From positions 6,944,001 through 7,008,000 of the forward strand of contig CM000151.3 of assembly GCA_000004695.1 (NCBI GenBank): DNA of 64,000 nucleotides, in the 5' to 3' direction. Positions 3,184 through 53,398 of this stretch are shown piece after piece. Made by a program: the position numbers and the translations under genes. Numbering within the stretch: the stretch's first letter is position 1; each line of letters opens with the position of its first letter. Source of the DNA: Dictyostelium discoideum (taxonomy: Eukaryota). The notes under the pieces are model-generated. The model was given only the letters and a program-made list of their open reading frames with translations, did not search any database and had not been told where the DNA came from.

Positions 3184-4118
3184 TGGATTAACAAGATTGA
3201 TATATGTCCATCTGTGTTAATACGAGTTTTTATTTAATATTTATTTATAGGCTTATCATTTAAGCTGAAGGGTTATTTTAATCATATGAATTGATCAAAA
3301 GATATAATATTTGGGAGAGATGATTCTGGAATACAATAGTAATTAGCTGTTGTTTTTCTTAGCTTGATCGTTGAGGTGAGAAGGATCTTAGGATCTTTGA
3401 AATTATTATGGTCTTTTGCTGATAAGTTTTTCAGATCTTTTGCTTTTTTGATGTATTCTAGAGTGGCCAATTTGTGCCATTTCTTTAGAAGGGAGCTGTA
3501 TGATAGTGATTCATTTGTTAAAGGATCTTCACTGTATATTTGATTGCAAATCCAAATCCAAATGTTGTGGAGGATAAGGGTCATTAGGTTTCTATATGCG
3601 AATGATCTGGTTAGATCATAGTCTATTGCTTTATAGTTCCATTCAAAGTATTCTTTGTGGAATCTGTGGTTGGCGTAATCTGCATTCACTTCTTGATCTT
3701 TTTTGGCTATCGGTGATAATTTTGGAGTTATTCTATTAATGAAATTGTTATTTTGCCTAATTCTTGTATGGTGCCAGTTTTTACCTTTGCCTGTGGTAAT
3801 ATAGATGAAATTTTTGAGTTTATTTATTTTTATGAATTGTTTTGTTTTCTTGCATGAGAAGAACAGGTGACCGTATGGGTCTTTGCTCATATCTTCTTTG
3901 CAGAGTGGGCATTGTTTGTTGTGAAGGTAGTTTATTGGAAGGCATCTGGCATGGAATCTAAACATTATGTCTCTTGTTTTAGGGTCTTTTATCTTCAGTA
4001 TGTTGTTGAAGAGTTGATTATAGCTGTAGCCTCTTAAGTTTAGAGATGATTGGAATTCCGTTTTAGGGATGGTTGGATTTTGGTCTTGAATTGTGGTATA
4101 CCATTCCCGAGGCATCAC
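3141..4118 (-). mobile_element. 5'-truncated TRE-type non-LTR retrotransposon fragment (TRE3-like, lying downstream of tRNA-Leu). It has an ORF2 C-terminus with a CCHC-like Cys motif, a 3'UTR and an oligo(A) tail.
   Basis: ORF 3282..4118 (-) encodes ...CPLCKEDMSKDPYGHLFFSCKK... and ...LEYIKKAKDLKNLSAKDHNNFKDPK...ANYYCIPE, a reverse-transcriptase C-terminal/Cys motif. It is homologous to two other degenerate copies in the window (5500-6600 and 63296-63420). The T-run 3141-3178 on + is the minus-strand poly(A) tail. The 5' end abuts the ex-B box of the tRNA at 4162-4244. Confidence 0.7.
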
Positions 4119-10074: not shown

Positions 10075-10693
10075 ATGAATAAATTAATTTTATCTATTCT
10101 TTCTGTTTTATTAATTGTTTCAATTGCTTCAGCTGGAAATGGTATTGATATTTCATCAGGAACCAATCCATCATCAAGTGATCTTGCATGTTTAGCTAAA
10201 CAAAACTCAAAAATTATTGTCCAAACTTGGTCAGGTGGTTATGGTTTTAATTCAAACGTACCATCAATTGTTCAAGCAGCCAAATCAGCTGGATTAAGTG
10301 TTGATTTATATGCATTTTTATGTTCACAATGTAGTGGTATTACAGACCCAGCAGAAGCAATTAAAACATTGGTTTCAAAATTAAATGGAGTCAAATATGG
10401 TACTTTATGGATTGACGTTGAACAATGTAATGGTTGTTGGAGTAGTACATTATCAAGCAATGCTCAATATGTTCAAACAGCAGTACAAACCGCCTCACAA
10501 TTGGGTGTAAATGTTGGTGTATATTCAAGCGAAGGTGAATGGCCACAAACAGTTGGTTCATTAACCTCTTTATCATCATTCCCATTATGGTATGCTCATT
10601 ATGATAATAATCCAAGTTTTAGTGATCAAGGTTATAATTTTGGTGGTTGGTCTAAAGCTGTCATGAAACAATATCAAGGTAATTAAATTTTAA

Positions 10694-14358: not shown

Positions 14359-15628
14359 ATGTCATCAACGATTGTATCATCAATTGGTAGTAATTCATTT
14401 ACTAAAGTATTTAGTAGTAGTGGTAGTGATGCAGTTGGAGGATTAATTTTATTAGAAGATAGTTTAGAATCATCATCTCAACATTTATTAAATCATTTAT
14501 ATTCTTTATGGTTACCAACAATATCAAAACAACATAGAAATATTTGGTTTTTAAATTTTAGTTCAACCATTTCTGAATATAAACAATTATCAAAAAAATA
14601 TAATAATTGTAATTTTATAGTTATTGATTATTATTCAGATTCATTTGGTTGGAATAATAATAATAATAATAATAGTAATAATAATAATATAACAGAGAAT
14701 TTACAACAAATTCCAATGATTTTTAAATCTGTAAAACATGATTCAGCTTCAATTATTAAAGATATTCAAAATGTTTATAATTGTAAATTAATATTTTTTA
14801 AATAATTCAATTAAAATAGTATATATATATATATATATTATTTTTTTACTAATATAATAATAAAAAATGTACACAGGTGTACCAAATAAATTTAAAGAAA
14901 ATCCAATAATTTTAATAAATTCAATATCAACATTAATTTTAAAGAGTGGATTATCAGATACATGTAATTTAATTAGATCATTAACAAATTATAATTTTAA
15001 TAAAGTAAAGCAAGATAAAGAGAAACAAGAAAAGGAACAAAAAGAACAACAAGATAATAATAATAATAATAATAAAAAAAAGATTGAAAAAATTAATAAA
15101 ATTGAAACAGGTATTGAAGGTAGTGTTAGTAATAGAATAAAGATGGAGAAATCATTTAGTTGTATATTTGCAATCTTACATACAGATTTACATGAATATG
15201 AACAATCCGTTCAAAAACAATTACAATATATATCATCAGTTTCAATTCAAGTTACACCATTATCAGCCAAATTAAAATATTCAGAATCTTTACCACATCC
15301 ATACGAATCAACAATTACATTGATCACTAAAAAACGTTCAGGCAGAGTCGTTAGAAATGTAGAATACTATTATATAAATAATGCCACTGGTAAGGTTGAA
15401 TTTGATTCTGCTGAATCATTACAAACCAAACAAGAGGAACAAGAACCTGATCCAACTCAAAATTTATCATTTAATCTTAAATTAACTGAAGATGAAAAAC
15501 AAGCTAGAGATTCTGTAGTTTTACCATATAGACATCAAGGTAATAATAATGAACAAACTTTATTAATTGAAGATCCAGATGATGAAGATTTTGATGATGA
15601 AGATCCTGATGATGATTTAGATATTTAA
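14359..15628 (+). CDS. Elongator subunit Elp6-like (RecA-fold) protein with an acidic C-terminus. It has 2 exons. The functional call is tentative.
   Basis: Exon 1 is 14359..14782, with a non-canonical GTAAAT donor. Exon 2 is 14877..15628, with acceptor acacAG. The sequence is MSSTIVSSIGSNSF...GGLILLEDSLESSSQHLLNHLYSLWL...NFSSTISEYKQL...FIVIDYYSD...NPIILINSISTLIL...FSCIFAILHTDLHEYEQS...ITLITKKRSGRVVRNVEYYYI.... Its spacing resembles human ELP6 (LTLLCD..FLVHHFLSFYL..FSHY..PVLLVDDLSVLL..MVVLVHD..RAEGLATG). The C-terminus is DPDDEDFDDEDPDDDLDI. Confidence 0.45.
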
Positions 15629-15827: not shown

Positions 15828-16358
15828 TTAACCTAAGATTTTAATTGCTTTTTGTTGATTTTTATTATGAGTATTTGAATGTTCTAAGCCAATAAAAGTA
15901 TTTACAGCATTCCAATCAATATTAGTACCAATTGAACCATCATCTGGAATGTATTCAACTTTATCACCTCTAATGATTGAAATCTTCCATCTTGAGAATT
16001 CTTTGGAAGATAAAGATTTTGATCCACCCAATTTCGCATATAATCTTGTTCTAAGTGATTGACAAGATTCACCAGGTTTATAAAGTATTGTCATTGGTGA
16101 GCCATGGAATAATGGATAATTATGTTCTCTACTATAATGAACTACAAATACAACTCTTTCTCCATTTTTTGGATTCATCTCTTCATCTGATATCATCTCT
16201 GCTCTCAATGCTGAAGAATCACCAATTGAGCAAACATCTTCGTCTGTTAATATCTTTTCAACTCTATATCCTCTAATTTCAATAAGTCTAATTTTATTTG
16301 AATCAATTGTTTCAATATCAAAATTATTATTATTCTCTTGTTTTTGATTTTCATTATC

Positions 16359-16420
<62 letters not shown>

Positions 16421-17397
16421 GATTATTATTATTTATAACTATACCATTCGTTTGTTGTTGTTGTTGTTGTTGTTGTTGTAAATTATTATTATTATTTTGT
16501 TGTTTATAATTTAATTTAATAGTTTTTAAAAATTCATTAATTAATTCTTTAACATCACCAACTCTTAATACCCAAACTGAAATGATTTCAAATTCATTTG
16601 TAAAAGGTTTTTGCCAAGTGATTTTAAAGTTTCTTTTGATTTCACAATCTTTAACTGGAATATTTAAGATTTCAAAGTAGAGTAAATCAGTTAATTTATT
16701 TGTACTTGATAACATATCATACAATGGTATATTATCATTTGGTTTGATTGGAGAGATTGGAGCGGCCATATTTTGTTTACACATTAACCTAATGTTTTCA
16801 GAGTTTGCACCAACTAGTGTCGCAATCTTTGCAGTGATTTCAGAGTATTTCATTTGTTTTGAGAATTCACAATTGAATTGAACTTGACTATTATCTACTT
16901 GTTTAATCTTTACAACTTTTGTATTTATGATATATTGAAAGTAGTCAATGACTGTTGGTAAATTGAATTTATTTGGAGAGGCAACTTGTTTTTGAAATAC
17001 TAAAATATCACCACTTAACATTTCACACTTTGTCAATGTTTCATTTGGTTTAATTGGTTGAATATTTGATGAAGTAATCTCCTCATAGACTAACAATGGT
17101 GTATTAATTGGTAAACCTGCCAATTGACATAGTTGTGGGAAGACACTAGATGCCTTTAAACTAATATCCAATACTTTTGATCCTAAAAACTTTAAACTTT
17201 TAGTCTCTGGATCATAAAATTTAAAAAATAATAATGCACTAGTTTCATTATCCTTATCGATTTTTGGGAAAAATGAATTCATATTATCTACAATTTGATT
17301 ATTATTATTATTGTGATGGTGATGATGCTGATGCTGATTTATACCACTATTAATTTGATTTATTCCACCAGTTAAACCACTGTTAACATTATTATTA

Positions 17398-17429
<32 letters not shown>

Positions 17430-19031
17430 GTTGTTATTATTACTATTATTATTATTAATATTATTATTAGCTAAAATATAATTATTACCATTTGAAGTTG
17501 GTGCAATTAATGGTCTTGGATTAAAACAAATCTCTAAATGTAATCTTATATCGCCATTCATTCTAGCACGAATTAAATTTAAAGACGTATCATCTTGTTC
17601 TGGATACTTTTCAATTCTATGAGTTCTGTTTCTTCTAGTTGTCCAAGCCCAAATTCTTTGTCTTTCAACTGGAATACCATATTGGGCAGTAATTTGTTTC
17701 TTAAAATGACCAATACTCATATTATCATGAGTCTTTTTAAATGTTTTTGGTGGGAATCTCTCGAAATCAATTAAATCAAATGATTTATGATCAGTAAAAT
17801 CTTCATCTCTAGTAAGTCTAAGTTGAAATGTTTGTTCATTCTCTCTCATTTCATCCTTTTCAATTCTAGATTTCAAATGTTCTGGTATTTCTGTTTCATC
17901 AATTGTTCTAGTTAATTGGTCATAACAATTATTTCTAAAATAAACTAACATATCTATAGATAAATTTAAATTTTGTAAAATAATTAATAATTTATTATTT
18001 TATTAATTAATTATATAAGTGTATACATACAAGCATTATCACTTCTACCTGGTCTAATACCAAAATCAGAACCAAATGATTCATCTGAAACTCTATCAAA
18101 TGTTGATTTTGTAACTTCATCATCATCAAATTTGAACCATTCTCCATTTGATTTAATAAATGCATAATAATGACCATTATGTAAATCACCTGAATGAATT
18201 AATACACTTTTAATTTTTAATTTTTTTTTTTTATAGTTAGTTTTTATTTTATGAAAAATAAATAATAACAATATATATATATATATATATACATTACCTT
18301 TGTAAAGTATAAATATAAGAAAGTGATTTATCAGCACCTTCATCTAAATAACGATTTAAATCTAATGTATCTGGGAATTTGTATTTATCATTAATTTTAA
18401 CATTTTCATCTCTAATTGGATCATATTCAAATCTTTTCAAATGTAAATTTAAAACTGGTGGTAATGATAAAAATTTGACACCTTTGTTTGCATTCTAAAT
18501 AATAGTTTAAAAAAAAAAAAAAAAAAACAAAGTTAATAAAATAAAATAAAATAAAATAATTTAATTAAACTTACTTGTAAACCAAAACCTTCAGCGAAAT
18601 ATTGATTTGAACCATCTAGTCTTTCAGTTTCTGTATATTTATCAAATGAAGCAATTATATCTTTACAACCTTTAACATTTAAAGAAAGGTCATAAAAGTA
18701 TTCATCACTTTTTGATTCAAATGATACTTTTTCACATTTAATAAAGTTTTTGATTTTTCCACGAAATAAATCATCAACTGTACCTTCAGCTTTGGTACCC
18801 TTCATCTTATCATTTAAATTATCACACAAGACACGATTTAATTCTTGAACATCATGTTGTGTGAAAATATCCATTGTATCCCATCCAAAACTTTTCGTTA
18901 ATTCTTTAGTTCCAACTGCTTTATCTCCAAATTGTAATTTAAAAAATATTCTCTGTAATGCTAATGATATACTTTTTGTTGGATCATCTGAAATTGTTGG
19001 TAATTCATAAACTGCCTTTGGAATAATAATA

Positions 19032-21156: not shown

Positions 21157-23979
21157 AAAAAAAAGAAACCAAAAAAAAAAAAAAAAAAAAAAAAAAGAAA
21201 AATAAAAAAAAAAAAAAGAAAAATAAAAAAAACTTTTTGAAAAATAAAACAATTTAGATACTAAAAAAAAAAAATAATAATTTAAATTATTAAAATATTT
21301 ATACATATAAAATAAAATAAATAAAAAATAAAAAAAAAATTTTTTTTTTAAAAAATAAGTTAAAAAATAAACTAATTTATTTCTCATTTATTCGGTTTGT
21401 TTATTTATTACGATTTTAATTTTTGATCGATTTGAAATATAACACCAAAACTTTGAAAAAAAAAAAATATCTTTTTTTTATTTTTTATTTTTTTTTTTTT
21501 TTAATTTTTATTTTTTTTTATTTTTAATTTTTATTTTTTTTTCTTTTTTCTTTTTTTTTAATTTTTTTCTTTTTTTTTTATAATATTTTATTTTACATTT
21601 ATTTTTTTACTTTTTTTTCTCCAATCACAATCCATATTTTAAAATAAACACTCACACAGTGTTCAGTGTTTTTTCATTTTTTCATTTTTTTTTTTTTTTT
21701 TTTTTTTTTTCTAAAATTTTGATAACAATTTTTTATTTTTAGTTTTTTATTTTTTTATTTTTTTATAATGGAAAATATATAAATATTTTTTTTTCCTTTC
21801 AATTATTTATATAAAAATTGATTTTTTTTTTTCTTTTTTTAAAATTTTAAAATAGTGTTGTTATTTTTAAAAATTCTAAATAAAATAATTGAATCACCTT
21901 AAATCAAAAGGATTTGATTGTAAGTAATAATTAATTTTAATAATAAATCATTCCATAACACACACCCCACACTTGAATTTCACTAAAAAAAAAAAAAAAA
22001 AAGTAAAAAAAATAAATGAAAAAACTTTTGATTAGAACTAAAATTTTTTTGAATGTGTGTGTTTTTGGAGTTGATTAATATTGTTGTTGGTTGGTTAATT
22101 CATTTTTTAATTACTTTTTTTTTTTTTTTTTTTTTTTTAAATTATTATTTTTTATTATTTTTTTTTTTTATTTTTATTTTTATTTTTTTTTGACCTTGCT
22201 ATTTATTTATTTTTTTCTTTTTTATTGTTCGAAAATCATTAAAAATAAAGCTGCAAATATTATAAATAATTGCTCATTATTGTATTTTTACTACTTGTAC
22301 CAATACTTCAAATAATAATTCAACATCACCAAAAATAAAAATAAAAATATAAATAAAATAAAATAAAATAAAAACAGAAAAAAAAAAAAAAAAGAACCAT
22401 CAAATTTCAATTAATCAGTTTTTTACAATAAAATCAAAAAAAAAAAAAAAAAACAAAAAAAGTAAAAAATTTAAAAAAAATACATCAAATTTTTTATTTT
22501 TACCATAATTTTCACTTTTTTTTTTTTTTTTTTTTTTTTGGCTTATGATCTAAAAATAGAATCAAGTGTTTTCGCCATTTTTTTGTTAAAAAAAAAAAAA
22601 AAAAAAGAATTAAAAATTTTAAAAATTCTCTCTCTTTCTCTCTTCCATTCTTTAAAAATAATCAATTTACACAAAAACAAATATTAAATATTCAATAAAT
22701 TGAAAAAAAACAAAGAATTGTTTTTTTAATATTTTTTTTTTTTACCACCCCAATTTCTTTTTTTTTTTTTTTCAATTTAAAAATTTAAAGATAAATTTTT
22801 TTTCTATTTTTAGTTTGAAATATGTGATTAATTATTGTCATAATACTTTTTTTTTTTTCTTTATACAACTAAAAAAAAATAATAAAAAATAAAAAAAAAA
22901 AAAAAAAAAAAGTATTTTAATCTTTAATTTTTGTTCCTTAAAAGTATTTATTTTATCTTAAATTGTGCATGCATCATATATGTCTTGGATTTTGAAATTT
23001 TTATTTTTTTTTTATTTTTTTATTTTTTTTTTATTTTTTATTTATATAATTAAACAAATAAAAATGAAATTTTTTAAACATATAAAGACACCCAGGAACA
23101 TATTATTTTTTTATTTTTTTATTTTTTGCGATATTTAATTAATATTTGTGGAGTGTGTTACCATCTTTTTTTTTTTTTTTTTTTTTATTTTTTATTTTTA
23201 CATGGCATAAAACAAATATCAATGTATTGGTTAATTATTTATTTTTTATTTTGTACTTTTTATAAAATACCCATTCATTATATTTGGATAAAGGAATTAT
23301 ATTAAAATTTTAATTTTCCTTTTTATTTTTTATTTTTTTTTTTTTGGTTTTCATTTTTTTTTTGTATAAACCACAACTAATTATAAAATTATTGTTATTT
23401 TAAAAATACTAATTTTATTTATTTATTTATTTATTTATTTATACAAATATAAATATTTATATATTTTTTTTTTAAAATGATTTTTTAAATAATTTTTTAA
23501 TTTTTTTTCCAACCTGCCCAATCATCATTTCAACCCCATCCAATTATATCATTATCCATCCCAAAAACAATAATTTTTTTTTTTATTATTTTGTTTTTTT
23601 CCTCAAAAATCAATTTCAATATAAATAATAATTTCTATAATAGAAATATAACAATATCAATATTTTAATTAAATTTAATTAAAATTTTTATTTTTTATTT
23701 TTAAAAACAACAATATTATCATTTTTTTTTTTTTCCTTTCCATTTTTATTTTTCTTTCATATCAAATAAATCAATCAATCAATCAATCTCAATCAATCTC
23801 AATCAATCAACCAATAATTTTTTTTTTATTTTTTTATTTTTTTATTATTTTTTTTTTTTTTTTGGAACTTATAAATCAAATATTTTATTTTATAATTTTT
23901 GTTAGCAAGAGCTGCTCATTAATTAATTTTTTTTTTTTTTAGAAATCCAATATAAATTCAAAAAAAAAAAAAAAAAAAA

Positions 23980-24487
23980 ATGGAATCAATATCAGAATCA
24001 AAAACAACACCAACTACACCAACAAGTAAACATGGTCAATCATCACCATGGAAAAAAAAGAAAAAATTATTAAAACCAAGTTATTCTTCACCATCATCAC
24101 CAAAACTATCAATATCACCAAAATTATCATCATCAAATTCAAATATAACACCACCATATTATAATACACCACCACAATCACCTGGTTCAAAATTAAAATC
24201 ATTTTTTTCAAAATTAAATTCACCAAATAAACATCATAATAAAAATTTTAATAATCACAACAATAATAACAATAATAATACAACATCATCCTCCCCAACA
24301 GAAGGATCAATTACACCATCATCAAATTCATCATCAACAAATCATTCACCAGTTATAAGTAGTCCATTTGGATTCGCTCATATAACACATGTAAATTTCG
24401 ATTCATCAAACCAAGAATTAACTGTAAGTTTTTTATTATTATCATAAAAAATATATTTTTTTTTTTTTGGTTAATTAATTTATTTTC

Positions 24488-24541
<54 letters not shown>

Positions 24542-27500
24542 ATTACCAAGAGATTGGGGTAAAACATTAAAAAGATCTGTAAATAAATTAGTAACAGTAA
24601 GAAGAGATAGTACTGCACAAAGAACATCATCAATTGGTAGTGGACTTGGTGATAGCAATAATAGTAGTAATAGTAGTAATAATAATAATAGTATAGCAAA
24701 ACAAAAATCAACATCATCATCAGCATTATTACAAAAACCACAATATGAAAATAATATACAAATTAGAGAACAAGGACTACTACTACAACTACCACCACCA
24801 CCGCCACCACCACCAATTAAATCATTTGAACATGAAATTGCAAATAAATTAAGATTATCAACACCTGATGATTTAGCATTATCACTTGAGAAATCAACTA
24901 GTAATAATAAATTATCAAAGTCTTCAAATATTAGACCAAAATCATCAACTACAACAACAACCACAACAACCACCAACACAACCAATAATAATAGTGGTAA
25001 TACAACAACGACAACAACGCCACCAACAACACCAAGTAAAAAATCAACAACTAGAAAATCATCACCAACTAAATTAACAACACCAACACCAACACAATTA
25101 CAAACATCTACATCTACATCGACAATAATAAATTTAGAGAATAATAATAATAATGAAGAATTAGAAAGAAGTACATCAATTTTAAGTAGTTTAGTATCAC
25201 TTTCAAAATTAGATTCATCAAATAGTAGTAAGAGTATGGATAATTTAGTGATTGGATCACCAACATTAATTAGAAGGGATATTCATATAACGTGGAATCA
25301 TGTATCTGGTCAATTTGAAGGTGTACCAGATGAATGGCAATCAATGTTACAACCAATAACATCAGAAAAACAAAGAAAAAAGAGAATGGATTTAAGAAAG
25401 AGATTAATTCGTGAAGAATCTTTAAAATGTGATAAAGAGGAGAAATCAAGACAACAAATCCGTGATCGTAGAGAAAGATCAAGGTTATTAAGAATTGAAA
25501 GAAGAAGATCTGTTTATTTATCAAGAACAAATTCAAATAGTTTAACATCACCATCACCAACTGCAATAGCAACATCATCACCTCAACCTTTACCACCACC
25601 ATTTAAATCTTATTCATTACAAAATTTTAGATTATGGCAAATTTCAGGTACAGAATTATTTAAAACTAAAAGAGTTGAAGCATGTTTTGATTCATTATGT
25701 TGTAATGATGTTTTCGTTTTAGATTGTGGTAAAGTTATTTATGTTTGGATCGGTCAAGGTTCATCATTACAAAAGCAAGTTAAAGGTGCTTCAGTTGCAA
25801 ATAAAATTAAATATGAAAATGACTATATCAATGAACCAATTATAATTGAATTTTTAATTGATAATGAAAAATCACCTGAACATACTGAATTTTTTAGAAA
25901 TTTAACAACAACAACAACAAACTCACCATCATCAACAACAACAACATCAACCACATCAAATCAACAACAACCAATTACAATTAATAATGTTTTTACAAAT
26001 AACTTAATAATTAATGAAAAAGTTTTAAAGATTGGACAATCAGATGATCAAATACTTCAAGAAGAAGATTCAGAAGTTACATGGTTATATAGAGTTAATG
26101 ATAATGGTAAAATTAATATGATTGATGAGAAACCATTGGTACCAACACTATTGAATAGTAATACTTGTTTTATTTTAGATTGTGAAACTGATATTTACGT
26201 TTGGCATGGTAAATATTCTCATCCATTGAAACAAAAAGTTGCAGTAATATTTGCAAAAGAATTTTTAAATATCTTCTCACAAAGACCAACTTGGGCATCA
26301 TTACATATAGTTCATCAAGGTGAAGAACAGTGGTTCTTTAAAGAGCATTTCTTATATTGGTTAGAAGATGAATGTTTAATTGATAATTCTAAAAGAAATA
26401 CCCTAACTTTTAGATTAGGTACTTCTTCAAATGGTATCACTGGTAATGGTAATGGTGTCAATATAATTAATAAAGGTATAGGCAGTCATATCAATTTACC
26501 AACACCTATTCCAATTGATTCAAATTTCATGGTATCTGATTTATTCTCAATACCTGATCCATATAATACAAAACCAATTTCATTATCACCATCACCATCA
26601 ACTTCATCAATTTTAAATAATAATAGTAATAATTTTAGTGTAAATAGTAATAGTAGTAGTAGAAGTAGTATTATGTTATTAAATAATAGTAATAATGATA
26701 AAAAACAACATATTTCATTAGATATTTGGAAAGGTGAAGGTGATCAATGGAAGAAACTAACAAAAGATTTATATGGTCATTTTGAAACATCAAAATGTTA
26801 TGTTTGTCATCATGTTTATAAAATTAATGGTAAATTTCAATCAAGAGCTTACTTTTGGCAAGGATGTGAAGCATCCATTAGATGGTGGATCGTATTTCAA
26901 TTTGGTCTTTATAAAGAATTGGGTGAACATATGCAAATGTTAGATTCCTCACCACCACCAACTGAATGTTTAACTCAAAATAAAGAATCTCATGAATTTT
27001 TAAAATTATTTAATAATATTTTCATTCATTATACAACAAGATCAGAATCACATGAAACCAATAATGGCAGTGGTAATAGTATGGCACCATCATCATCATC
27101 ATTATCAATTTCTTCAATGTCTTCAATGGGTTCTGGTGTTTCATCAACTTCTTCAACGACACAACAACTTCAACAACAACAACAACAACAAAATAAACAA
27201 CATCATATTAGTATGTGTGGATTAGGTAGTAATACAAAACAAACACTTTATCAAATTACTTTAATTGCAAATACATTTACAAGATCTGTACAATTTCAAG
27301 AGTTTGATGCATCATGTTTAAATAGTAGAGATATGTTTATATTTCATTCGTTTGCTGCAAAAACTATATTCGTTTGGCATGGTAAAGGATGTAGTAAAGA
27401 GTTGAAATTAATTAGTCAAAATATTGCAAATTCAATATTGACTTATTATCAAAATACTGGTGAAATTTCAAAGAATGAAATGGATTTAGTAATTGATTGT

Positions 27501-28574
27501 CAAGAAGGTCAAGAACCACCAATATTTTGGAAACTTTTCTTATCCCTAACAAATAGTGCTGCTCAAAATGTTACAACAATGCCATTAGAACAAAAAAGAA
27601 ATTTCTATGCTTATGACCCATATTATGATCAACAACAACAACAACAACTCTCAACAATCAATAGTGTTGGTATTAGTGGTGGTGGTAGTAGTAATAATAA
27701 TAATTTAATAATTGAAAATAATAGAATACCACCAAAATTTTATCACATTTTTTATAATATTAAAGTTCGTACTTATGTTGTTACAAAGATTAGTCCATTT
27801 TGTCAAGGTGATCTTTGTGAAGAGGATTCATTCATTTTGGATTGTTTTTATAAGATATTTGTTTGGTTTGGTCCAGATTGTTCAAATAGAAAGAGGGAGA
27901 CCACTAAACAATTGGCAAAACAATATATTGAAGAATCAACCATTGGTCATTCAATTGATTCTACTAAATTGGTATTAATTGAATCTGGTGAAGAGGATGC
28001 AGAATTTAGATCATATTTTCAAGGTTGGTCCTATAATTTCATTTTAACCAATTGGAAAAATAATTCTCAATCTTTAATTGGCGCAGGTGCTGATCATAGA
28101 TTACTAAATTCAATAGTTTCCTATAGTTCAATGTCATCTCAAGTTGATAATATTGGCGGTGTTGAATCTGGTGATGAAGGTGGTGGCTATGGGTATGGTT
28201 ATGGTGGTTATGCTGATTCTAATAGCACAACAACAACAAGTTGTAATACTACAAACAATTCAACTTGTGGTACACCATTATCAAGTTCACCAATGTCTTG
28301 TTCACCTGGTTTTGGTTCATTTAATTTAGCTTCAACAATTATTAATACATCAAATGATGCTAATACTTTATCACAACCTTTAGAATCTTGGGAATTAGAA
28401 TTAGAATCAACCATTAATTCAATTAAAAAGAAACCAATCTTCTCTCCAAAACAACCTTCATCATCATCATCATCATCATCCTCTTCTTCTAATCCATCAA
28501 ATCAACATAAAATTAAAAAATATGATACAATTAAACAAATGTTAGATGAATTCGAACATACTCCAAATAATAAA

Positions 28575-28629
<55 letters not shown>

Positions 28630-29681
28630 TTAATAGTAGTAACTATGCTACCAATTTACCATCAATTACTGAAACTTCACCACCACCAACATTATCAATT
28701 TCTTTACCATCACAGTCTGATAATCAAACAATTTCAGAATTACCATCAATTTGTGATCCATTAGTAAATGAAGAATCAGAGAATAGTACTGGTAGTAGTA
28801 GTGGTAGTATTACAACAACCACCACAACAACTACAACAACTACAAATTTAAAACTACCACCACAATCACCCCCACAACTAATTGTTAATAAGAGAACATC
28901 ACAACATCAACATTTACAAGCACCTCCAAGTCCAAATCTTTCACCAGTTTTAAAGAATAGATTAATTGAACTTGCTCATGTAAATAATGCTAAACATAGA
29001 AAAAGGGGAGCTAGTGAAACAAAGAAATCAAGTCCACTCTTAAAAAGTATTTCAAAGGATAGACCATCAGCAATCGTTATCAATAATGTCACAAGAAATC
29101 ATGGTGGTTCTATAGATGCTAAATCAATGCAAGATTTAAAATTAAATAAAGTTGATATGGAATTAGATTTAGAAGTTATTAAACTTGAAAATGAATTATC
29201 TGTAATTGTTGAAAATATTCAAGATCATTCTCAAACTACTAATATTAAAACTGATAATATTATTAATAATAATAATAATTACAATAACAACAAATTAGAT
29301 ACAAATACTTCAACTACAACTACAACGACAACCGCTTTAGAAAAAATTGAGAGTAATACAAACAACAATGAAAAGATTGATGCTTCATCTGCTGTAGTTG
29401 CCAATACTGCTTGTAATAAACCAATTGAACAACAAGAAATTATTGAAGCACCTATTCAAAGAAAAATTTCAATACCAAATTTACCAATAGGTGCCAATAT
29501 AACACCAACACCAGTTCTAGTTCATACTTTATCATCACAATCAATTGCACCTCAATCACCATCGACAATTAAAAAAGTGGCATTAAAAGTTTCAGTTCCC
29601 GTAAAACCAATTGAAATTCAAAATATTGCTCTTACTACCTCAAATGCTACAATCTCTCAATCACCAAGACAATCAACTGTA

Positions 29682-29765
<84 letters not shown>

Positions 29766-30410
29766 ATAATTACACCAAGAACATCATTCCAACAACAACA
29801 ACAAAATGCTTCATTAGCAAATTCAACTACAACAGCACCAAGTGTACAGAAATTTAAAATTAATACATCAACAATTCCAACAAATAATGGATTAGTTTCA
29901 CCAAGACCTCCATTACCAACAACATCTTCTTCTTCATCATCATCATCATCATCAAGTAGTGCAACCATAAATAATGGGCTAGTTTCACCAAGACCTCCAT
30001 TACCAACATCATCATCAAATAGTTCTACTACAAACAATGGATTAACTTCACCAAGAATTATTACAACACCAAGAATTAATGGAAGTAATCCAAATGTACC
30101 AAAAAATATATCACCTTCTAAATCAAATAATGCCACTACATCCTCATCAACAACAACAACCACCTCATCACCACCACCATTACAAAGAACAAACTCTGTA
30201 AAAGATAGAATTAATCAAGTTGAAAGTATTGTAAAAAGTATATCAGAATCTACTAATAAATTACCACCAAAACCAATTCAAAGATCAGATTCTCAAATAT
30301 CATTCAAATCAACAATAAACACATCCTCAAATCCAATTCCAAAACCAACATTCGTACCTGAACCAATTACTCCAAAATGCGCGCCATCTCCAAAGGCTTT
30401 TATAAGATAA
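23980..30410 (+). CDS. Very large (about 2100 aa) protein with two tandem CRIB/PBD motifs followed by at least five gelsolin-like repeats and a long S/T/N-rich low-complexity C-terminus. It is a putative Rac/Cdc42-effector actin-binding protein. It has 2 exons.
   Basis: Exon 1 is 23980..24423, with a GTAAGT donor. Exon 2 is 24540..30410, with an acceptor after an A-run. CRIB 1 spans the intron: ISSPFGFAHITHVNFDSSNQELT|GLPRDWGKTLKRS. CRIB 2 is IGSPTLIRRDIHITWNHVSGQFEGVPDEWQSMLQ, which matches PAK [34 protein letters not shown]. The gelsolin segments are ..FVLDCGKVIYVWIGQGSS.., ..CFILDCETDIYVWHGKYS.., ..MFIFHSFAAKTIFVWHGKGCS.. and ..SFILDCFYKIFVWFGPDCS... Poly-N tracts are encoded by (AAT)n at 28565-28625 and 29684-29762. 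Confidence 0.8.
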
Positions 30411-30757: not shown

Positions 30758-31419
<662 letters not shown>

Positions 31420-33541: not shown

Positions 33542-34818
33542 TTATTTATTTACATTATTTTTATTAAAATTTTCAATTTTCTTTTGTTCTTGTAAAGTTT
33601 TCTTTAATCTTTCTGTACTATTATATTTATTAATGAATGGTTTTAATTCATCTTTGATTGGTACTTCAATAGTTTCACCATGTTTTAAAGAATTTGGTAA
33701 AACATATGGACCATAAGCAACACGAATTAAACGTAAAACTTTAACATTGAAATATTCTAATAATGTTCTAATCTCTCTTTTCTTACCTTCTTGCAATGTT
33801 ATACGTAACCATGTGTTTGAATCGGTTTCACTCTCGACTTGAACACTCACTGGTCTATAGAAAACTTCATTTATAACCATACCTTTTGCAAGACTAAATT
33901 TCATTTCATCTGTAAATTTACCAAATATTCTTACCTTGTAAACACGGAAAAATAAATTCTGTGGTAATGTTAAATATCTTGCCAATTCACCATCATTTGT
34001 AAATAAAATCAATCCCTCTGTATAATAATCTAATCTACCAACTGATATCAAATGATCAATTCCTATAACTTTTCTAATAATTGGTAATAAACAATCTCTA
34101 CCATCTGGATCATATTCTGATGTCAAAACTTGTGGATTCTTAAAATGCATCCAAATTTTTGGTTTATCTACTTTAATCTTTTTTGAAAATTTTAATTAAT
34201 ATTAATATATTAATTAAAAATAAATAGAATAAAATATGAAAAACTTACTGGTTTATCATCAACTGTAATTATATCATGTGGTTTAACTAATATTTCTTCC
34301 ATTTTAATTATTTTACCATTAACTTTAACTCTACCATCTATAATTAATTCTTCAGCTTTTCTTCTTGAAGCAATACCTGCTCTTGCTAAAATCTTTTGAA
34401 TTCTTTCAGTACCGATTTTACCATCTTCTACAAAACCTTCACCTTTTTTAATAAAATCATTTTCTTTAATTTTTTCTGCATCTTTACTCCAAAAACTTAT
34501 TTCTGGATAACCATCTTTTTTCATATCTTTTTCATTTAATTCACCTTGTTTTTTTGCTAATTTTTGTTCTCTAAATTTGTCACGTCTAAGTTTCTTTAAA
34601 TATGACCCAATTTTATCTAATCTTGGTATCTTTTTTGATGTTGAATAATTTAATAATGATGATTGTATTAATGATGATGGTGTTGTTTGATTTATAAATA
34701 AAGATGAAAATGATTGAACATTTTGTTTTAAAATTGTTAATGATAACGATGATGGACCAAGTGGTATATTCGCTTTATATCTTCCTAATATATTAAAACA
34801 ATTATTTAATTTAAACAT
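33542..34818 (-). CDS. RNA pseudouridine synthase of the RsuA/RluB family with an N-terminal S4 RNA-binding domain, likely organellar. It has 2 exons.
   Basis: Exon 1 is 34818..34252 (...RIQKILARAGIASRRKAEELIIDGRVKVNGKIIKMEEILVKPHDIITVDDKP) with a GTAAGT donor. Exon 2 is 34177..33542 (IKVDKPKIWMHFKNPQVLTSEYDPDGRDCLLPII..IGIDHLISVGRLDYYTEGLILFTNDGELARYLTLP...). The catalytic-Asp motif GRLD and the TNDGEL motif are present. Confidence 0.85.
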
Positions 34819-35796: not shown

Positions 35797-36914
35797 ATGG
35801 AGTCATTTACAGAGAAAATGTTTGATTTTCAAAGAAGAGCAACACAAGCAGTACTTCAAAAGATGGGAGCATCAGAAACAACAATTGATGAACAATTTGA
35901 AAATACTCATACAAATTTTAAAAGATTAGGTGAATTTTTAACACATTTAGAGGAATCAACACAATCATCATTAACTCAAATGGAAAAGATGTGTTTTGCA
36001 AATAATCAATTAGCATCATCTTTATGTAATTTCGTATTATCAGAGTTATCAAATGATGACACTGAATTCTCTACAGGTTTATTATCGAAATTCTTTTTAA
36101 AAACTTCAACCAATCCAAACCTATCTCAAATGGAAAACACTAAAGAGTTTGAATTGAGACAATCAAAATTTCAAGAATCAGTTCAAAGATTATACGATAG
36201 TTTCGGTACAATGGGTCATGAAAATATGGCCTCTACTCAAGATGAAATCAATCATAAAATCGTACGTCCAATTAAAAGAGATCAAGATTATAATAAAGTA
36301 ACTAAACAATTAATAGAAAAAAGAAAAAAATTAAATTTAGATTATGATTCAATTAAAAGATCAAAGTAATTATTAATATATATATATATATATACACATA
36401 TTATATATATTAAATTTAATTTATTTCATTTACTAATTATTATTGTTATGTTTTTTTTTTATTTTTTTTTTATAAAAGTGATAATGAAAAAATTAAATTA
36501 GTTAAAGAAGAATTTGATATATTATCAAAGAAAACAGCATCACATCTTCAAAATAGGTCATATGTAAGATGTAAATTAATAGTTCATAGTGTAATCACTA
36601 TGGTACAACAATTTTGTATGTTTTTCGAATCAAACTCTGTACTTTTAGAAGGATTATTAACATTTATAGAACCACTCATTCAAACTTATCAATTAAATAC
36701 CGAGCAATTAACTGATATCTATACAATTAAAAAAACAACAACCCCCACCACCACCACCACTACTACCTCTTCACCTTCATCTTCTTCACCTAGACAACAA
36801 CCATTTAATGGCAGTAATAACAATGGTAATACTCCAACTGGAAAACCGATACCATCTTCACCACCTCCAACTTATAAAGAGCATTTAGATAATAATAATA
36901 GTAATAATAGTAAT

Positions 36915-40335: not shown

Positions 40336-42396
40336 TTAAAGTTCATCATGGTTTGGCATATCTTCACCAGCGCCATTTGGGGAACCACCAGCAGCACCAT
40401 ATAATTTAGAGAAGATTGGTTGAACGATCTTTTCAAGGATTTTGTATTGTTCATCAAATTCTTCTTTTTCGGCAGAGGAGTTAACATCCAACCAAGAAAG
40501 GGCATCAGAGATAGCGGTTTCAATGGTTTCTTTATCATCTGATTCGATTTTACCACCGATCTTATCTTTATCACCAATGGTGTTTTTAATTTGATAGATG
40601 TAATTTTCCAAGGTATTCTTGGCTTCGACACGTTCTTTGGCAGCTTTATCTTCATCAGCGGCATCGGCAGCTTCTTTGACCATACGATCGATATCGGCTT
40701 GTGAGAGACGTTCCTTATCGTTGGTAATGGTGATGGATTCTTTAGAACCAGAAGCTTTATCTTCAGCTGATACATGTAAAATACCATTGACATCCATTTC
40801 AAAGGTGACTTCAATTTGTGGGACACCTCTTTGAGCTGGTGGGATACCAGAGAGATCAAATTTACCCAAGAGATTGTTATCTTTGGTCATTGAACGTTCA
40901 CCTTCATAGATTTGAATGGAGACACGATCTTGATTATCTTGATAGGTTGAGAAAACTTGTGATTTCTTGGTTGGAACAAATGTACCTCTTGGGATTAAGG
41001 CAGTCATAACTCCACCAACGGTTTCAATACCGAGGGTGAGTGGGGCGATATCTAAGAGTACGAGAGTGTCAGTACCTTCTTCATTGGTGAAAATACCACC
41101 TTGAACGGCAGCACCATAGGCTACAGCCTCATCTGGATGAACACCACGATTTGGTTCTTTACCATTGAAAAAATCTTTTAAGAGTTGTTGAATCTTTGGA
41201 ATACGAGTTGAACCACCAACTAAAACTACTTCGTGGATTTGTGATTTCTTGAATTTGGCATCTTCTAATACCTTCTTTACTGGGTCTAAAGTCTTTTTGA
41301 AGAGATCCATATTGAGTTCTTCAAATTTGGCTCTGGTGAGGGTTTCAATGAGATCTTTACCATCAAAGAAGTTTTCAATCTCTAATTGGGTTTGTGGAGA
41401 GGTTGAGAGAATACGCTTGGCATTTTCAGCAGCTCTTCTTAATTTTTGGAGTGATTTCTTATCTTTTGAGGCATCTTTACCAGTCTTCTTTTGGAAAACG
41501 GTTAAGAAATGTTTCATAACACGTTGATCGAAATCTTCACCACCTAAATGAGTGTCACCATTGGTTGAACGAACTTCAAATACACCATCTTCAATGGATA
41601 AAACTGAAACATCAAATGTACCACCACCTAAATCGTAAACCAAGATATTCTTTTCCTTATCACCAGTGGCATCGAAACCATAGGCTAATGCTGCTGCGGT
41701 TGGTTCATTAATAACACGTAAAACTTCAAGACCTGCAATAACACCTGCATCCTTTGTGGCTGCACGTTGTGCATCATTGAAATAAGCTGGACATGTTACA
41801 ACGGCGTGAGTTACTGTCTTACCAAGGGATGCTTCGGCAATTTCCTTCATTCTACCAAGGATCATTGCTGAGATTTCTTCTGGTGAGTAAGTCTTTTCTT
41901 CACCTTTAACTTTAACTACAACGTATGGTTTATTATTTTTTGAAACAATTTTATATGGTAATAATTTCATATCTCTTTGAACTTCTTCATCATCAAATCT
42001 AAAAAAAAAAAAAATAAATAAAAAAATAATTAGTTATATATTTAAAAAAAAAAAAATAAATAAAAAATAATTAATTAATTACCTTCTACCAATTAAACGT
42101 TTAATATCAAAAATTGTATTTTCTGGGTTGAGAGTTGCTTGATTCTTTGCAGCTTCACCAATGAGACGTTCAGTTTCAGTGAATGCAACATATGATGGAG
42201 TAATACGATTACCTTGATCATTTGGAATAATTTCAACTTTACCTTTCTTGAAGACACCAACACATGAATAGGTAGTACCTAAATCAATACCAATAACACT
42301 TCCATAATCTTTCTTTTCTTCTTCTTTCTTTTCAGCTGCTGCTGCAAAAGAAATTAATAATAATAAACATAATAATGCGTAAATGGATTTATTCAT
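40336..42396 (-). CDS. grp78: ER-luminal Hsp70 chaperone BiP/GRP78, with a signal peptide and a C-terminal HDEL. It has 2 exons.
   Basis: Exon 1 is 42396..42083 ([49 protein letters not shown]...[12 protein letters not shown]) with donor GTAATT. Exon 2 is 41998..40336 ([28 protein letters not shown]...[11 protein letters not shown]...[10 protein letters not shown]). Hsp70 signatures are present throughout. Confidence 0.95.
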
Positions 42397-44935: not shown

Positions 44936-46122
44936 ATGGCAACAAGAGATAGAACACCATCATATCTTTTATTAAAAATCGAATATAACAATAGAAGACC
45001 CATTAACCATAAGAAATCAACATCAAATTATGAAACATTAGATGAAGAGAATAGAAATGGTATGATACCATTAGTATCATTAAACAATAATAATTATAAA
45101 AATGGCGCAAATATTGATACTAGTCCAAAATTACAACAATTAAATGTAATACCTGCGTGGATGCAAAGAATAAATGATATAGATGTAAATCTATCAAAAA
45201 TTCATTCTCAAAGTAAGTTTTTTTTTTTTTTATTTTTTTAATTTTTATTTTTTTTTTTTTTATTTCCTAAACTATACATATTAATTTTTTTTATTTTTTA
45301 TTTTTTTTTTAATAATAATAATAAATAGTTGAAAAATTAAAAGGATATCATGATAAAAATTTATTACCAGATATGAGTTTGGAAGATCAATCAGATTTAG
45401 AAAGATCAATTGAAATTACTACTTCTGAAACTACAAGAGTATTTATTTTTAAAATAATAAAAAAAAAAAAAAAAAAAAACTAATTTTTTATATATTTTTA
45501 GTTATTCCATAAAACACATGATATGATAATAAATTTAGGTGGTGATAAAGGTACAATTTTTACATCAGAAGATATAAAGATTAAAAAAAATGTACAACAA
45601 TCGAAATCAGCGAAATTACAATCATTATCAGTATTATTTAGACGAAAACAAAGTAATTATTTAAAAGCATTAAGAAAAAGGTCAAATTCATTTACAGATT
45701 TATATAATAAAAGTGGACTTGCTAAAGAAGAAGAAGAAGAAGAAGGAGAAGGAGAAGAGGAAAATCAACTTTGGCAAGAAATCGAATTCGATTTTACAAA
45801 TGAACAAAAACAAATAGTCAAATTAATGGAAATTGAAATTTCATCAAGAGATAAAGAAATTAGAAATCTACTTGAATCAATCAATGATTTAACTCGATTA
45901 TTTCAAGATATAAGTTTATTAGTTGCTCAACAAGGTACTATATTAGATAGAATAGATTATAATTTAAATGAAACCGAGTCAATGGTAACTGACGCAACAG
46001 ATGTAGTTATTATAATAAATAAAAAGCATAAAGAATATAGATCAAGATTATGTATATTAATGGTTTTAGTTGCTTTAGTTGTTTCAATGATTTTCATTAT
46101 TATTTTAAAAATGGTATTCTAA
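44936..46122 (+). CDS. Syntaxin-16/Tlg2-like Qa-SNARE, copy 1 of a tandem array. It has 3 exons.
   Basis: Exons are 44936..45212, 45329..45438 and 45502..46122, with GTAAGT/GTATTT donors. It has an N-peptide MATRDRTPSYLLLK, consistent with an SM-protein/Vps45-binding motif. The SNARE motif is RDKEIRNLLESINDLTRLFQDISLLVAQQGTILDRIDYNLNETESMV, with a zero-layer Q. There is a C-terminal TM helix (LCILMVLVALVVSMIFIIIL). Confidence 0.85.
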
Positions 46123-46869: not shown

Positions 46870-48122
46870 ATGGCAACAAGAGACATAACATCATCATATA
46901 TTTTATCAAGAACAGAATGTAAAAATCGTGCAAAAATAATAAATAGTGCAATTAATATTAATATTAAAAAATCAGGATCAGGTTATAAAAGATTAGAAGA
47001 AGAGAATTATCAAGATATTGATATTGATAATAATAATAATAATAATAATATAAATAATAATAATATAAATAATAATGACAATGATAATGATACTACTAAT
47101 AATATAAAGAACAGTAATAATAATAATGATATACAATTAAATATACTCGATACTGAAATAAATATAGAACAATTAAATTCATTACCACCATGGATTCTAA
47201 AATTAAATGATATAGATGAGAATATTAAAAAAATTATATCATTAAGTATGTCTTTTTTTTTTTTTATCATCATCCCATTTTAAAAAAAATAATTATTAAT
47301 TAAAAAAAAAAAAAAAATAAAGTTGAAAAATTTAAAAAATATTTAAAAGAAGATATTGATAAAATTTTAGCAGAAGATATTGAAATGGAAAGTAGAATTG
47401 ATTGTGAAAGATCAATTGAACTTTTAACGATGGAAACAATTAGATTATTTCATAAAACATTTGATATGATAAAGTATTTAAATAAAAGTAATAATTCAAG
47501 TCAAGGTGAAAATAAAATGAAAAAGAATACACAGAGAATGAAATCTGCAAAATTAAAAGCATTATTAATAACATTCAAACATATTCAAAGGTCATATTTA
47601 GCATTGTTAAAGAAAGTATCAAGTTTACAACGGAGTTTATCTTCATCATTTTTATATAGAAGTGGTGAATATGATGTAAATAATGATAATGAAGATTATG
47701 GTGAGAATAGTAGTATTAGCAATTCACATTATCTTCAACATCATCACAACAACAACCACCACCATGAAGATGATCATGATCATGAGGAAGATCATGAAGA
47801 GATTATGGATGAATTAAATGAAATGGCAACTACATTAATTGAAAGACAAAGAGTATCTCAATTAATTAAAGAAACTTCTCATTTAATTCAAGACGTTGGC
47901 TCAATGTGTGTAAAAAAAGATTCAATTTTTGATAGAATAGATTACAATTTAGCTGAAGGTGAAGAATTAGAATTTAATGGTACTATTTTAATTTGTGATG
48001 GTATTACTAATGGTTATGAAAGACCAGAAAATGAAAAAAGAAAAAAATTATTATTGATTTTTGCTGTTTTAATCATAGTAATATTGTTCATATTTATTTT
48101 AAAATATGTAATTGAAATTTAA
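46870..48122 (+). CDS. Divergent syntaxin-16-like paralog, copy 2. It has 2 exons. The exon 2/3 intron is lost, a His/acidic insertion is present and the zero-layer Gln is replaced.
   Basis: Exon 1 is 46870..47245 with a GTATGT donor. Exon 2 is 47323..48122. It has an N-peptide MATRDITSSYILSR. The region homologous to copies 1 and 3 (..SIELLTMETIRLFHKTFDMIKYL..) is continuous here, so the intron is absent. There is an insertion ..HYLQHHHNNNHHHEDDHDHEEDHEE... The SNARE core is IQDVGSMCVKKDSIFDRIDYNL, compared with LVAQQGTILDRIDYNL in copy 1. The TM tail is LLLIFAVLIIVILFIFIL. Confidence 0.75.
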
Positions 48123-49305: not shown

Positions 49306-50463
49306 ATGGCAACAAGAGATAGAACCCCTTCATTTAATTTAATAAAATCAGAATACAAGAATAGAAGACCCTCAAGACACTATGGTAATGAATCAGATGA
49401 AGATAGTAATAATGTACCATTAGTATCTCTTAATAGAGCTGGAAATAATATTCATAATAACAATAATAATGACCTTAATTTACAAAAATTAAATGTATTA
49501 CCAGCATGGATGCAAAGAGTTAATGATATAGATGTAAACTTAACAAAAATTTCACAACAAAGTAAGTAATATATTCTTCTTCTTTTTTTTTTTTATTCAT
49601 TCATTCATTTATTTAAAATATTTAACCTAAAAAGATAAAATTATTAACAACAACAACAACAACAACAACAATAATAATACATAATAATAATAATAATAAA
49701 TAGTTGAAAAATTAAAAGGATATCATGATAAAAATTTATTACCAGATATGAGTATGGAAGATCAATCGGATTTAGAAAGATCAATTGAAATTACAACTGC
49801 TGAAACTACAAGAGTATTTATCAACATATTATTATTAATAAAATAATTAAATAATAAAAATACTAACATTATTAATATTTTTAGTTATTTCATAAAACAC
49901 ATGATATGATAAAAAATTTAGGTGGTAAAGGTACAATATTATCAGCAGAAGATATGAAAATGAAAAAGAATATACAATCAAGTAAATCAGCAAAATTACA
50001 ATCACTTTCATTATCATTTAGACAAAAACAAAGAACTTATTTAACAGCATTACAAAAAAGGTCAAATTCATTTTCAGATTTGTATAATGACCAAAATGAT
50101 GATGATGATGGTGAAAATGCAATCGATTTAGATTTTACAGATGAATTAAAACAAGTTGTAAATGCAATGGAAGAAGAAATCACTCAAAGAGATAAAGAAA
50201 TTAGAAAAATCGTTGCATCAATCAATGATTTATCTCATTTATTCCAAGATATAAGTGTATTGGTTGTTCAACAAGGTACTTTATTAGATAGAATAGATTA
50301 TAATTTAAATCAAACTGAAGCATATACTCAAGAAGCAGTCGTTGAAATTGATGAAACAAATAAAATACATAAAGAATATAGAACTAGATTATGTATATTA
50401 ATGATTTTAGTTGCTTTGGTTGTTGCAATGGTTTTCATATTTATTCTTAGATTCATTTTTTAA
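49306..50463 (+). CDS. Syntaxin-16/Tlg2-like Qa-SNARE, copy 3. It has 3 exons and is closely related to copy 1.
   Basis: Exons are 49306..49561, 49704..49813 and 49885..50463. A TACTAAC branch site sits at 49861-49867. It has an N-peptide MATRDRTPSFNLIK. The SNARE motif is RDKEIRKIVASINDLSHLFQDISVLVVQQGTLLDRIDYNLNQTE. The TM tail is LCILMILVALVVAMVFIFIL. Exon 2 is the same length (110 nt) as in copy 1. Confidence 0.85.

Positions 50464-53355: not shown

Positions 53356-53398
<43 letters not shown>

Follow-up and report, generated by a model that had tools for sequence, protein, structure and literature searches.

A probable gnrC locus of Dictyostelium discoideum encodes two CRIB motifs followed by five gelsolin-fold repeats of the G2-G6 order

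Supervillin, in which the residues needed for severing are not conserved, binds the sides of actin filaments, and its binding to F-actin is insensitive to Ca2+ (PMC2140202). The Dictyostelium proteins GRP125 and villidin are gelsolin-related, carry extra regions, associate with actin and are needed for slug phototaxis (PMC2211301). In addition, D. discoideum has gnrC (UniProt Q551I6), a "novel gelsolin-related protein" and gelsolin homologue that was listed as functionally uncharacterised in a 2022 review of protozoan CRIB proteins, where its product is said to be unique in the D. discoideum proteome in having two consecutive CRIBs at its N-terminus (PMC8847673); gnrC/Q551I6 also appears among listed genes of the actin cytoskeleton (PMC7888446). 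Here we analyse a gene at positions 23,980 to 30,410 of a 64,000-nucleotide stretch of the D. discoideum genome (assembly GCA_000004695.1, contig CM000151.3, positions 6,944,001 to 7,008,000 of the forward strand), referred to below as the window. As both the species and the stated uniqueness of the architecture point to gnrC (gelsolin-related protein C), we consider it quite probable that the locus is gnrC, or the corresponding gene of a near-identical strain, and that it encodes a Rac-recruited, Ca2+-insensitive, supervillin-like F-actin-binding scaffold.

The published description of GnrC (Q551I6), by which the comparison was made, fits the product of this gene completely, with no known difference. 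An origin from D. discoideum or a near-identical strain also accords with a neighbouring ORF (open reading frame) of the window, which shares a 90%-identity cluster with a protein of "Dictyostelium cf. discoideum", and three ORFs of the window recur exactly in assemblies of public sequencing runs. The earlier note on this DNA had regarded the joining of CRIB motifs to gelsolin repeats as differing from the known Dictyostelium gelsolin-related proteins. The fusion of both modules in one polypeptide is real, as seen from Pfam, from the fold of the third repeat and from an ORF of Polysphondylium violaceum, but it matches what has been reported for gnrC/Q551I6 (PMC8847673; PMC7888446); the observation is accurate, well above chance and a re-discovery of a published gene and domain combination. 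No CRIB-gelsolin protein is discussed in a large review of Rho signalling in Dictyostelium from 2021, which is consistent with a lack of experiments on GnrC, and the supplements of a 2026 life-cycle proteome contain no entry for Q551I6 or gnrC.

Like supervillin, GnrC joins a very long disordered region to villin/gelsolin repeats in which the residues for severing are not conserved, yet unlike supervillin it has no villin headpiece and its disordered regions flank the repeats on both sides. A helix pattern in the third repeat is common to GnrC and a subfamily of relatives bearing the Pfam domain DUF7904. The CRIBs of GnrC were found in no non-orthologous relative among the best 150 matches of the search described below. 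With gelsolin, villin and severin it shares the fold and an order of repeats colinear with G2-G6; unlike them it lacks G1, has much longer linkers between the repeats and has lost the glutamate of the type-2 Ca2+ site in all five. As in the PAK and WASP effectors, CRIB1 fits ISxPxxFxHxxHV, and each of the two CRIBs runs on into a GxPxxW of the PAK type, but in GnrC there are two CRIBs in tandem, the second without the first conserved histidine, and the output is a gelsolin array rather than a kinase or a VCA region. For GRP125 and villidin, compared by description only, no CRIB has been reported.

Joining the two exons across the single 116-nucleotide intron gives a coding sequence of 6315 nucleotides in one frame, which encodes 2104 residues (Table 1). 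The exon coordinates and the junction between ELT and GLP given in the earlier note are exact, as judged by inspecting the ORF, the donor and acceptor sites and the frame. In the P. violaceum orthologue (P0002, locus L001) one intronless ORF (L001 1684-3168) spans everything from the N-terminus through CRIB1 (ISRPFALSHVTHINFDPNSRELQGLPNDWGKTLKK) and the linker to CRIB2, and it reads SRELQGLPNDW across the position homologous to the exon junction. As P. violaceum encodes the spliced peptide contiguously, the splice inside CRIB1 is validated. In Acytostelium subglobosum (P0003, L002) an intron is found at the homologous position (SSSDLK/gt...ag/GISQNW). Both ends of the gene model are supported, since the N-terminal motif SPGxKxKSFFSKxNS is common to the orthologues and the C-terminal end K-x-F-[IV]-R is shared with the orthologue P0001.

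The longest ATG-initiated ORF listed for exon 2 begins at 25236, just ahead of CRIB2, and from this one could argue that exon 1 is a separate small gene and that the true protein starts within exon 2 and has a single CRIB. We find this hardly credible, as the frame is already open from 24540, the donor and acceptor are canonical and in frame, the N-terminal motif is conserved and P. violaceum keeps everything from the N-terminus to CRIB2 in one ORF. It is this uninterrupted ORF that rules out the separate transcript for exon 1 which had been considered at the outset.

The composition of the region is very AT-rich, with 10-15% GC in intergenic and 25-33% in coding sequence, as in dictyostelid genomes. 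An uninterrupted run of about 50 A residues lies in the gnrC intron at about 24488-24538, just ahead of the AG acceptor, and (CAAT)n-like repeats occur upstream of the gene at 23760-23815. ORFs that overlap the gene in antisense or out of frame (among them 24488-24985 and 29657-30163, both on the minus strand) were rejected as by-products of low-complexity coding sequence.

Scanned alone, each CRIB segment scores above the gathering threshold of the Pfam PBD family (PF00786, 21.3 bits), and the full 2104-residue protein reaches 64.8 bits in two stretches. Two consecutive CRIB motifs, the first split by the intron, had been noticed from the sequence, together with the need for a Pfam scan in case the CRIB-like segments fell short of profile thresholds; they occur in that order, and the scan, with two PBD and four Gelsolin matches above the cut-off, rules such a failure out. 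CRIB1 (ISSPFGFAHITHVN) keeps seven of the eight residues of the consensus I-S-x-P-x(2-4)-F-x-H-x-x-H-V-G, including H134 and H137, the only change being G to N, and the PAK-like continuation GLPxxW follows it. CRIB2 (IGSPTLIRRDIHIT) retains of the consensus only I, P and the second histidine (H397), with Phe replaced by I392, the first His by R394, Val by I398 and Gly by T399; it aligns gap-free to the PBD of PAK1 through the PAK-type GxFxGxPxxW. Both histidines of PAK1 are required for GTPase binding, as known from H83/H86 mutants, and as the first of the two is replaced in CRIB2, the competence of this motif is uncertain.

A profile of the orthologues matches the PAK1/PAK2 CRIB chains in the PDB. 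Each of the five orthologous sequences has CRIB2, in which 21 positions are invariant, and four of the five have CRIB1: A. subglobosum, whose exon 1 forms a single ORF as far as the intron (L002 ~3300-3450), has no ISxPxxFxHxxHV half of CRIB1 and keeps CRIB2 alone. In the D. discoideum protein an S/T/N-rich, low-complexity linker of about 220 residues separates the two motifs. Between CRIB2 and the first repeat, in the place expected for G1, lies a conserved charged segment of 58 residues with 23 K/R and 10 D/E (aa 421-478), and the Pfam scan found no family in the interval between CRIB2 and that repeat.

The repeats, named R1 to R5, were scanned as separate segments against the Gelsolin family (PF00626, cut-off 21 bits) and DUF7904 (cut-off 30 bits). 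Four of them are recognised by PF00626, whereas R3 stays below both thresholds (DUF7904 21.8 bits, Gelsolin 10.1 bits). A local phmmer search with R3 matched 111 relatives with 120 domains in total; most often a protein has one such domain, placed where its fourth repeat lies, and the matched region is an above-threshold DUF7904 in several of these. The AlphaFold model of R3, built on a 42-sequence alignment, has a mean predicted local distance difference test (pLDDT) of 93.9, and in Foldseek it matches gelsolin G1, gelsolin G4-G6 and villin V4 with a template-modelling score (TM) of ~0.75, a root-mean-square deviation of ~2.1 A and a probability of 1.00. Judged by this model, R3 has a gelsolin fold despite its sub-threshold Pfam scores. 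A model of aa 500-1345 based on a 4-sequence alignment had a pLDDT of 40.5; it agrees with gelsolin repeats in secondary-structure pattern alone and was left out of the fold comparison. The protein thus has exactly five gelsolin-fold domains, four by PF00626 and R3 by fold; of the "five or more" first counted, the five stand and the surplus does not.

Aligned by phmmer to full-length gelsolin, R1 falls on 143-203 (G2), R2 on 249-354 (G3), R3 on 402-494 (G4) and R5 on 621-722 (G6). The orthologue profile places R1-R2 on villin 149-350, with R1 corresponding to V2, R3 on 404-452, R4 on 542-595 (V5) and R5 on 641-723, and in 45 six-repeat relatives of 700-900 residues the best matches have modal centres at about 170, 300, 440, 550 and 670. 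Since the gelsolin and villin alignments are colinear and the modal centres agree with them, the alignments identify the array as G2-G6 of gelsolin/villin, with G1 absent. Linkers of 50-95 low-complexity residues separate the repeats. Six repeats with a degenerate G1 were considered and rejected, as the interval between CRIB2 and R1 matches no family and is a charged low-complexity segment. A villin-type protein was likewise rejected for want of a headpiece; the full protein gave no match to VHP (PF02209) at E<=10.

Ligands of Ca2+ were called from ungapped or nearly ungapped alignments to gelsolin, the numbering being checked on D187/E209, E327, D445/E475 and D670/E692, and also from the consensus columns of the family. 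No repeat keeps the helix glutamate of the type-2 site: E209 is replaced by K560, E327 by K712, E475 by W931, the G5 glutamate by L1103 and E692 by K1266. The aspartate of the site is replaced in two of the five, R2 (G3 Asp to T690) and R3 (D445 to K900), and retained in R1 (D538), R4 (D1079) and R5 (D1244). As the type-2 helix glutamate is replaced in all five repeats, judged by alignment and not by structure, the protein is probably insensitive to Ca2+.

The long helix of R3 carries an invariant aromatic/hydrophobic stretch, WWIVFQFGLY. Related helix patterns (SRSYISYKFGLYKE and HWWPAFLFGFYP) are common to a subfamily of gelsolin relatives bearing DUF7904, and as similar helices occur in these relatives, the R3 helix is, by its residues, a mark of the DUF7904 type and not unique to this protein.

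How widely this architecture is distributed was examined by taking aa 380-1345 as a phmmer query, run exhaustively against 1.84 billion cluster representatives, and the best 150 matches were inspected. Three are strong, P0002 (1124 bits), P0010 (965 bits) and P0003 (703 bits), and the next drops to 167 bits, where ordinary proteins of the gelsolin/villin family begin. Among these 150 and the matches found earlier, CRIB-like motifs occur only in P0001, P0002, P0003 and P0010. In P0010 Pfam recognises two stretches of PBD; it recognises no PBD in the seven matches that follow, which combine gelsolin repeats with ankyrin/EF-hand domains, with CH and headpiece, or with PH domains. The four orthologues are 36-57% identical to the D. 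discoideum protein, keep the architecture and share hundreds of invariant columns; the CRIB or CRIBs, the charged segment, G2-G6, a motif following G6 and a C-terminal QRTxSVK motif are colinear over the full length, so that they form one orthogroup. The two that are named, from P. violaceum and A. subglobosum, are dictyostelids, and hence at least two of the four. Word-index searches with a query from which low complexity was deleted, or with the interval from CRIB2 to R1 alone, missed even known orthologues, and their negatives were not taken as absence.

The invariant motif after R5 (columns N1322-I1340) stands where gelsolin has its C-terminal tail; it is pure speculation that it could take part in autoinhibition. 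The tail that follows confirms the S/T/N-rich sequence of about 800 residues described earlier, its length by composition being 759 residues. Within it are conserved islands, namely PLESWELELE, NRLIELAHVN..RKRG, HGGSIDAKS, QRTNSVKDRINQVESIVKSI and the terminal KAFIR.

Rac-family GTPases are the partners of Dictyostelium CRIB effectors (PMC8305917), and we infer that GnrC binds Rac-GTP via CRIB1 and possibly CRIB2. Based on our data we propose that an active Rac GTPase would bind CRIB1, perhaps also CRIB2, and that this binding, together with the polybasic stretch (K5, KLKSFFSKL), would bring GnrC to the membrane cortex and/or release an intramolecular lock. The G2-type domain could then bind the sides of filaments, with a possible contact between the G4-type domain and a subunit of actin. 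As the type-2 glutamate is lost in all five domains and G1 is missing, the switch would be a GTPase instead of Ca2+, and the activity to be expected would be filament binding and scaffolding as in supervillin, rather than severing. A more specific version, which we put forward tentatively and consider rather unlikely, is that the GTPase switch replaced the Ca2+ switch of gelsolin, with CRIB2, the Arg-rich segment in the place of G1 and the post-G6 motif locking G2-G6 until Rac-GTP binds; Rac would then control the binding or capping of filaments directly through GnrC, free of kinases and of Arp2/3.

Several points weigh against a Rac-recruited, F-actin-binding GnrC. The long helix of G1 and G4 is the one that contacts actin, and that of R3 is very unlike it; actin binding by the G2-G6 core is predicted from homology only. 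CRIB2 is without the first of the two histidines needed in PAK1, and as half of CRIB1 has been lost in A. subglobosum, no CRIB of this protein combines a canonical sequence with conservation in all orthologues. Identity with Q551I6 is drawn from the species and the uniqueness of the architecture, not from a sequence match, an exact look-up of the 2104-residue sequence having returned no entry in the collection searched, and no interacting Rac is known for GnrC (PMC8847673).

In the earlier note GTPase binding was tied to an actin severing or capping module. The fusion holds, but the severing/capping part is probably wrong, with G1 absent and the Ca2+-site glutamate replaced in five of five repeats. 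A Rac-activated enzyme that severs filaments or caps their barbed ends, in other words a GTPase-gated gelsolin, would be in keeping with five true gelsolin domains, one with a fold of the G1/G4 class, and since gelsolin's C-terminal half is capable of binding monomeric actin, capping by the G4-type domain is conceivable. Deletion mutants of gelsolin show, on the other hand, that severing requires G1 together with G2-G3, and GnrC has no G1. Severing also needs the gelsolin G1-G2 linker, residues 150-160 (cited in PMC2140202), and the segment ahead of R1 (PPPFKSYSLQNF) is unlike it; with the loss of the Ca2+-site glutamate from every repeat, such an enzyme appears quite improbable.

A further possibility is that the CRIBs are not classical effector sites for GTP-bound Rac, binding Rac-GDP instead, or that CRIB2 and the Arg-rich segment serve only as an intramolecular or partner-binding element, with a gelsolin core that is a protein-protein scaffold without direct regulation of actin. 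The CRIBs of Dictyostelium coronin and coronin7 are reported to prefer GDP-loaded Racs (PMC4585930; PMC8305917). CRIB2 departs from the consensus at F, at the first H, at V and at G and is nevertheless the most conserved element, and the atypical R3 helix would fit as well. CRIB1, with seven of eight consensus residues, both histidines and the PAK-type GLPxxW extension, speaks against this. In PAKs and WASPs the CRIB consensus with that extension is the signature of GTP-dependent binding, and we hold non-effector CRIBs to be improbable and favour GnrC as a Rac-recruited scaffold.

Table 1. Features of the gnrC locus and recognised genes elsewhere in the window (positions are those of the window; residues are those of the 2104-residue protein)
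Feature	Positions	Strand	Residues	Remarks
Exon 1	23980..24423	+	1-148	148 codons from ATG at 23980; S/N/P/K-rich N-terminus and first half of CRIB1
K5 tract	24052-24066	+		in exon 1
Conserved basic-hydrophobic motif	24178-24222	+		SPGSKLKSFFSKLNS; in exon 1
CRIB1/PBD	24355..24581	+	126-162	spans intron: ISSPFGFAHITHVNFDSSNQELT / GLPRDWGKTLKRSV; PF00786 43.9 bits, E 3e-11
Intron	24424..24539	+		116 nucleotides, GTAAGT...AG, almost pure A/T; within CRIB1, between ELT and GLP
Exon 2	24540..30410	+	149-2104	plus stop (30408-30410); reading frame uninterrupted
P8 tract	24792..24815	+	233-240	CRIB1-CRIB2 linker
CRIB2/PBD	25251..25385	+	386-430	IGSPTLIRRDIHITWNHVSGQFEGVPDEW...; PF00786 33.4 bits, E 5.6e-8
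Arg/Lys/Glu-rich segment	25356..25529	+	421-478	conserved; between CRIB2 and R1
R1, G2-type	25629..25895	+		PF00626 46.8 bits; RLWQISG... aligns to gelsolin RLFQVKG...
R2, G3-type	26079..26366	+		PF00626 44.2 bits; aligns to gelsolin 249-354
R3, G4-type variant (Pfam DUF7904 type)	26706..27035	+		sub-threshold in Pfam; invariant hydrophobic long helix ASIRWWIVFQFGLYKEL
R4, G5-type	27243..27539	+		PF00626 28.5 bits
R5, G6-type	27732..28031	+		PF00626 39.2 bits
Invariant post-G6 motif	28059..28115	+	1322-1340	NNSQSLIGAGADHRLLNSI; directly after R5
S/N/T-rich tail	28131..30407	+	1346-2104	759 residues; S 16%, N 16%, T 11%
Three NNGL(V/T)SPR(PPLP) repeats	29883-30080	+		in tail
ARMC5-like ARM protein	100-2733	+		
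GH25 lysozyme	10075-10683	+		
Elongator Iki1-like	14867-15628	+		
USP7-like C-terminal region	15828-17951	-		
BAR-domain protein	35797-36366	+		
Hsp70	40336-41970	-		
Protein kinase split over two ORFs	50954-54137	-		

The neighbouring genes (Table 1) are ordinary eukaryotic ones with no functional link to gnrC. Just downstream of gnrC, on the minus strand, a 91-residue Cys-rich ORF with spacing of the CxxC type (30761-31033) has no Pfam match, and beyond it lies a long simple repeat of the (ATT/AAT) type at ~31090-31260. Two adjacent 202-residue ORFs on the minus strand (33545-34818) show no mutual similarity and are not duplicates; the one at 34213-34818 has an S4 domain and the one at 33545-34150 a pseudouridine synthase domain, and together they probably make up a single gene with two exons, a reading that fits a 410-residue "Dictyostelium cf. 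discoideum" protein of the same cluster. Farther along, SNARE/syntaxin-like matches occur in three plus-strand ORFs within 5 kb (45523-46119, 47385-48119 and 49906-50460), possibly a small cluster of t-SNARE paralogues.

The absence of G1, the lost Ca2+ glutamates, a CRIB2 that is more conserved than the canonical CRIB1 and the degeneration of CRIB1 in Acytostelium together narrow the activities of GnrC that are worth testing. Should GnrC be characterised, it would stand as a Rac effector whose action on actin filaments is direct, via its gelsolin domains, and not via PAK kinases or WASP/SCAR-Arp2/3.

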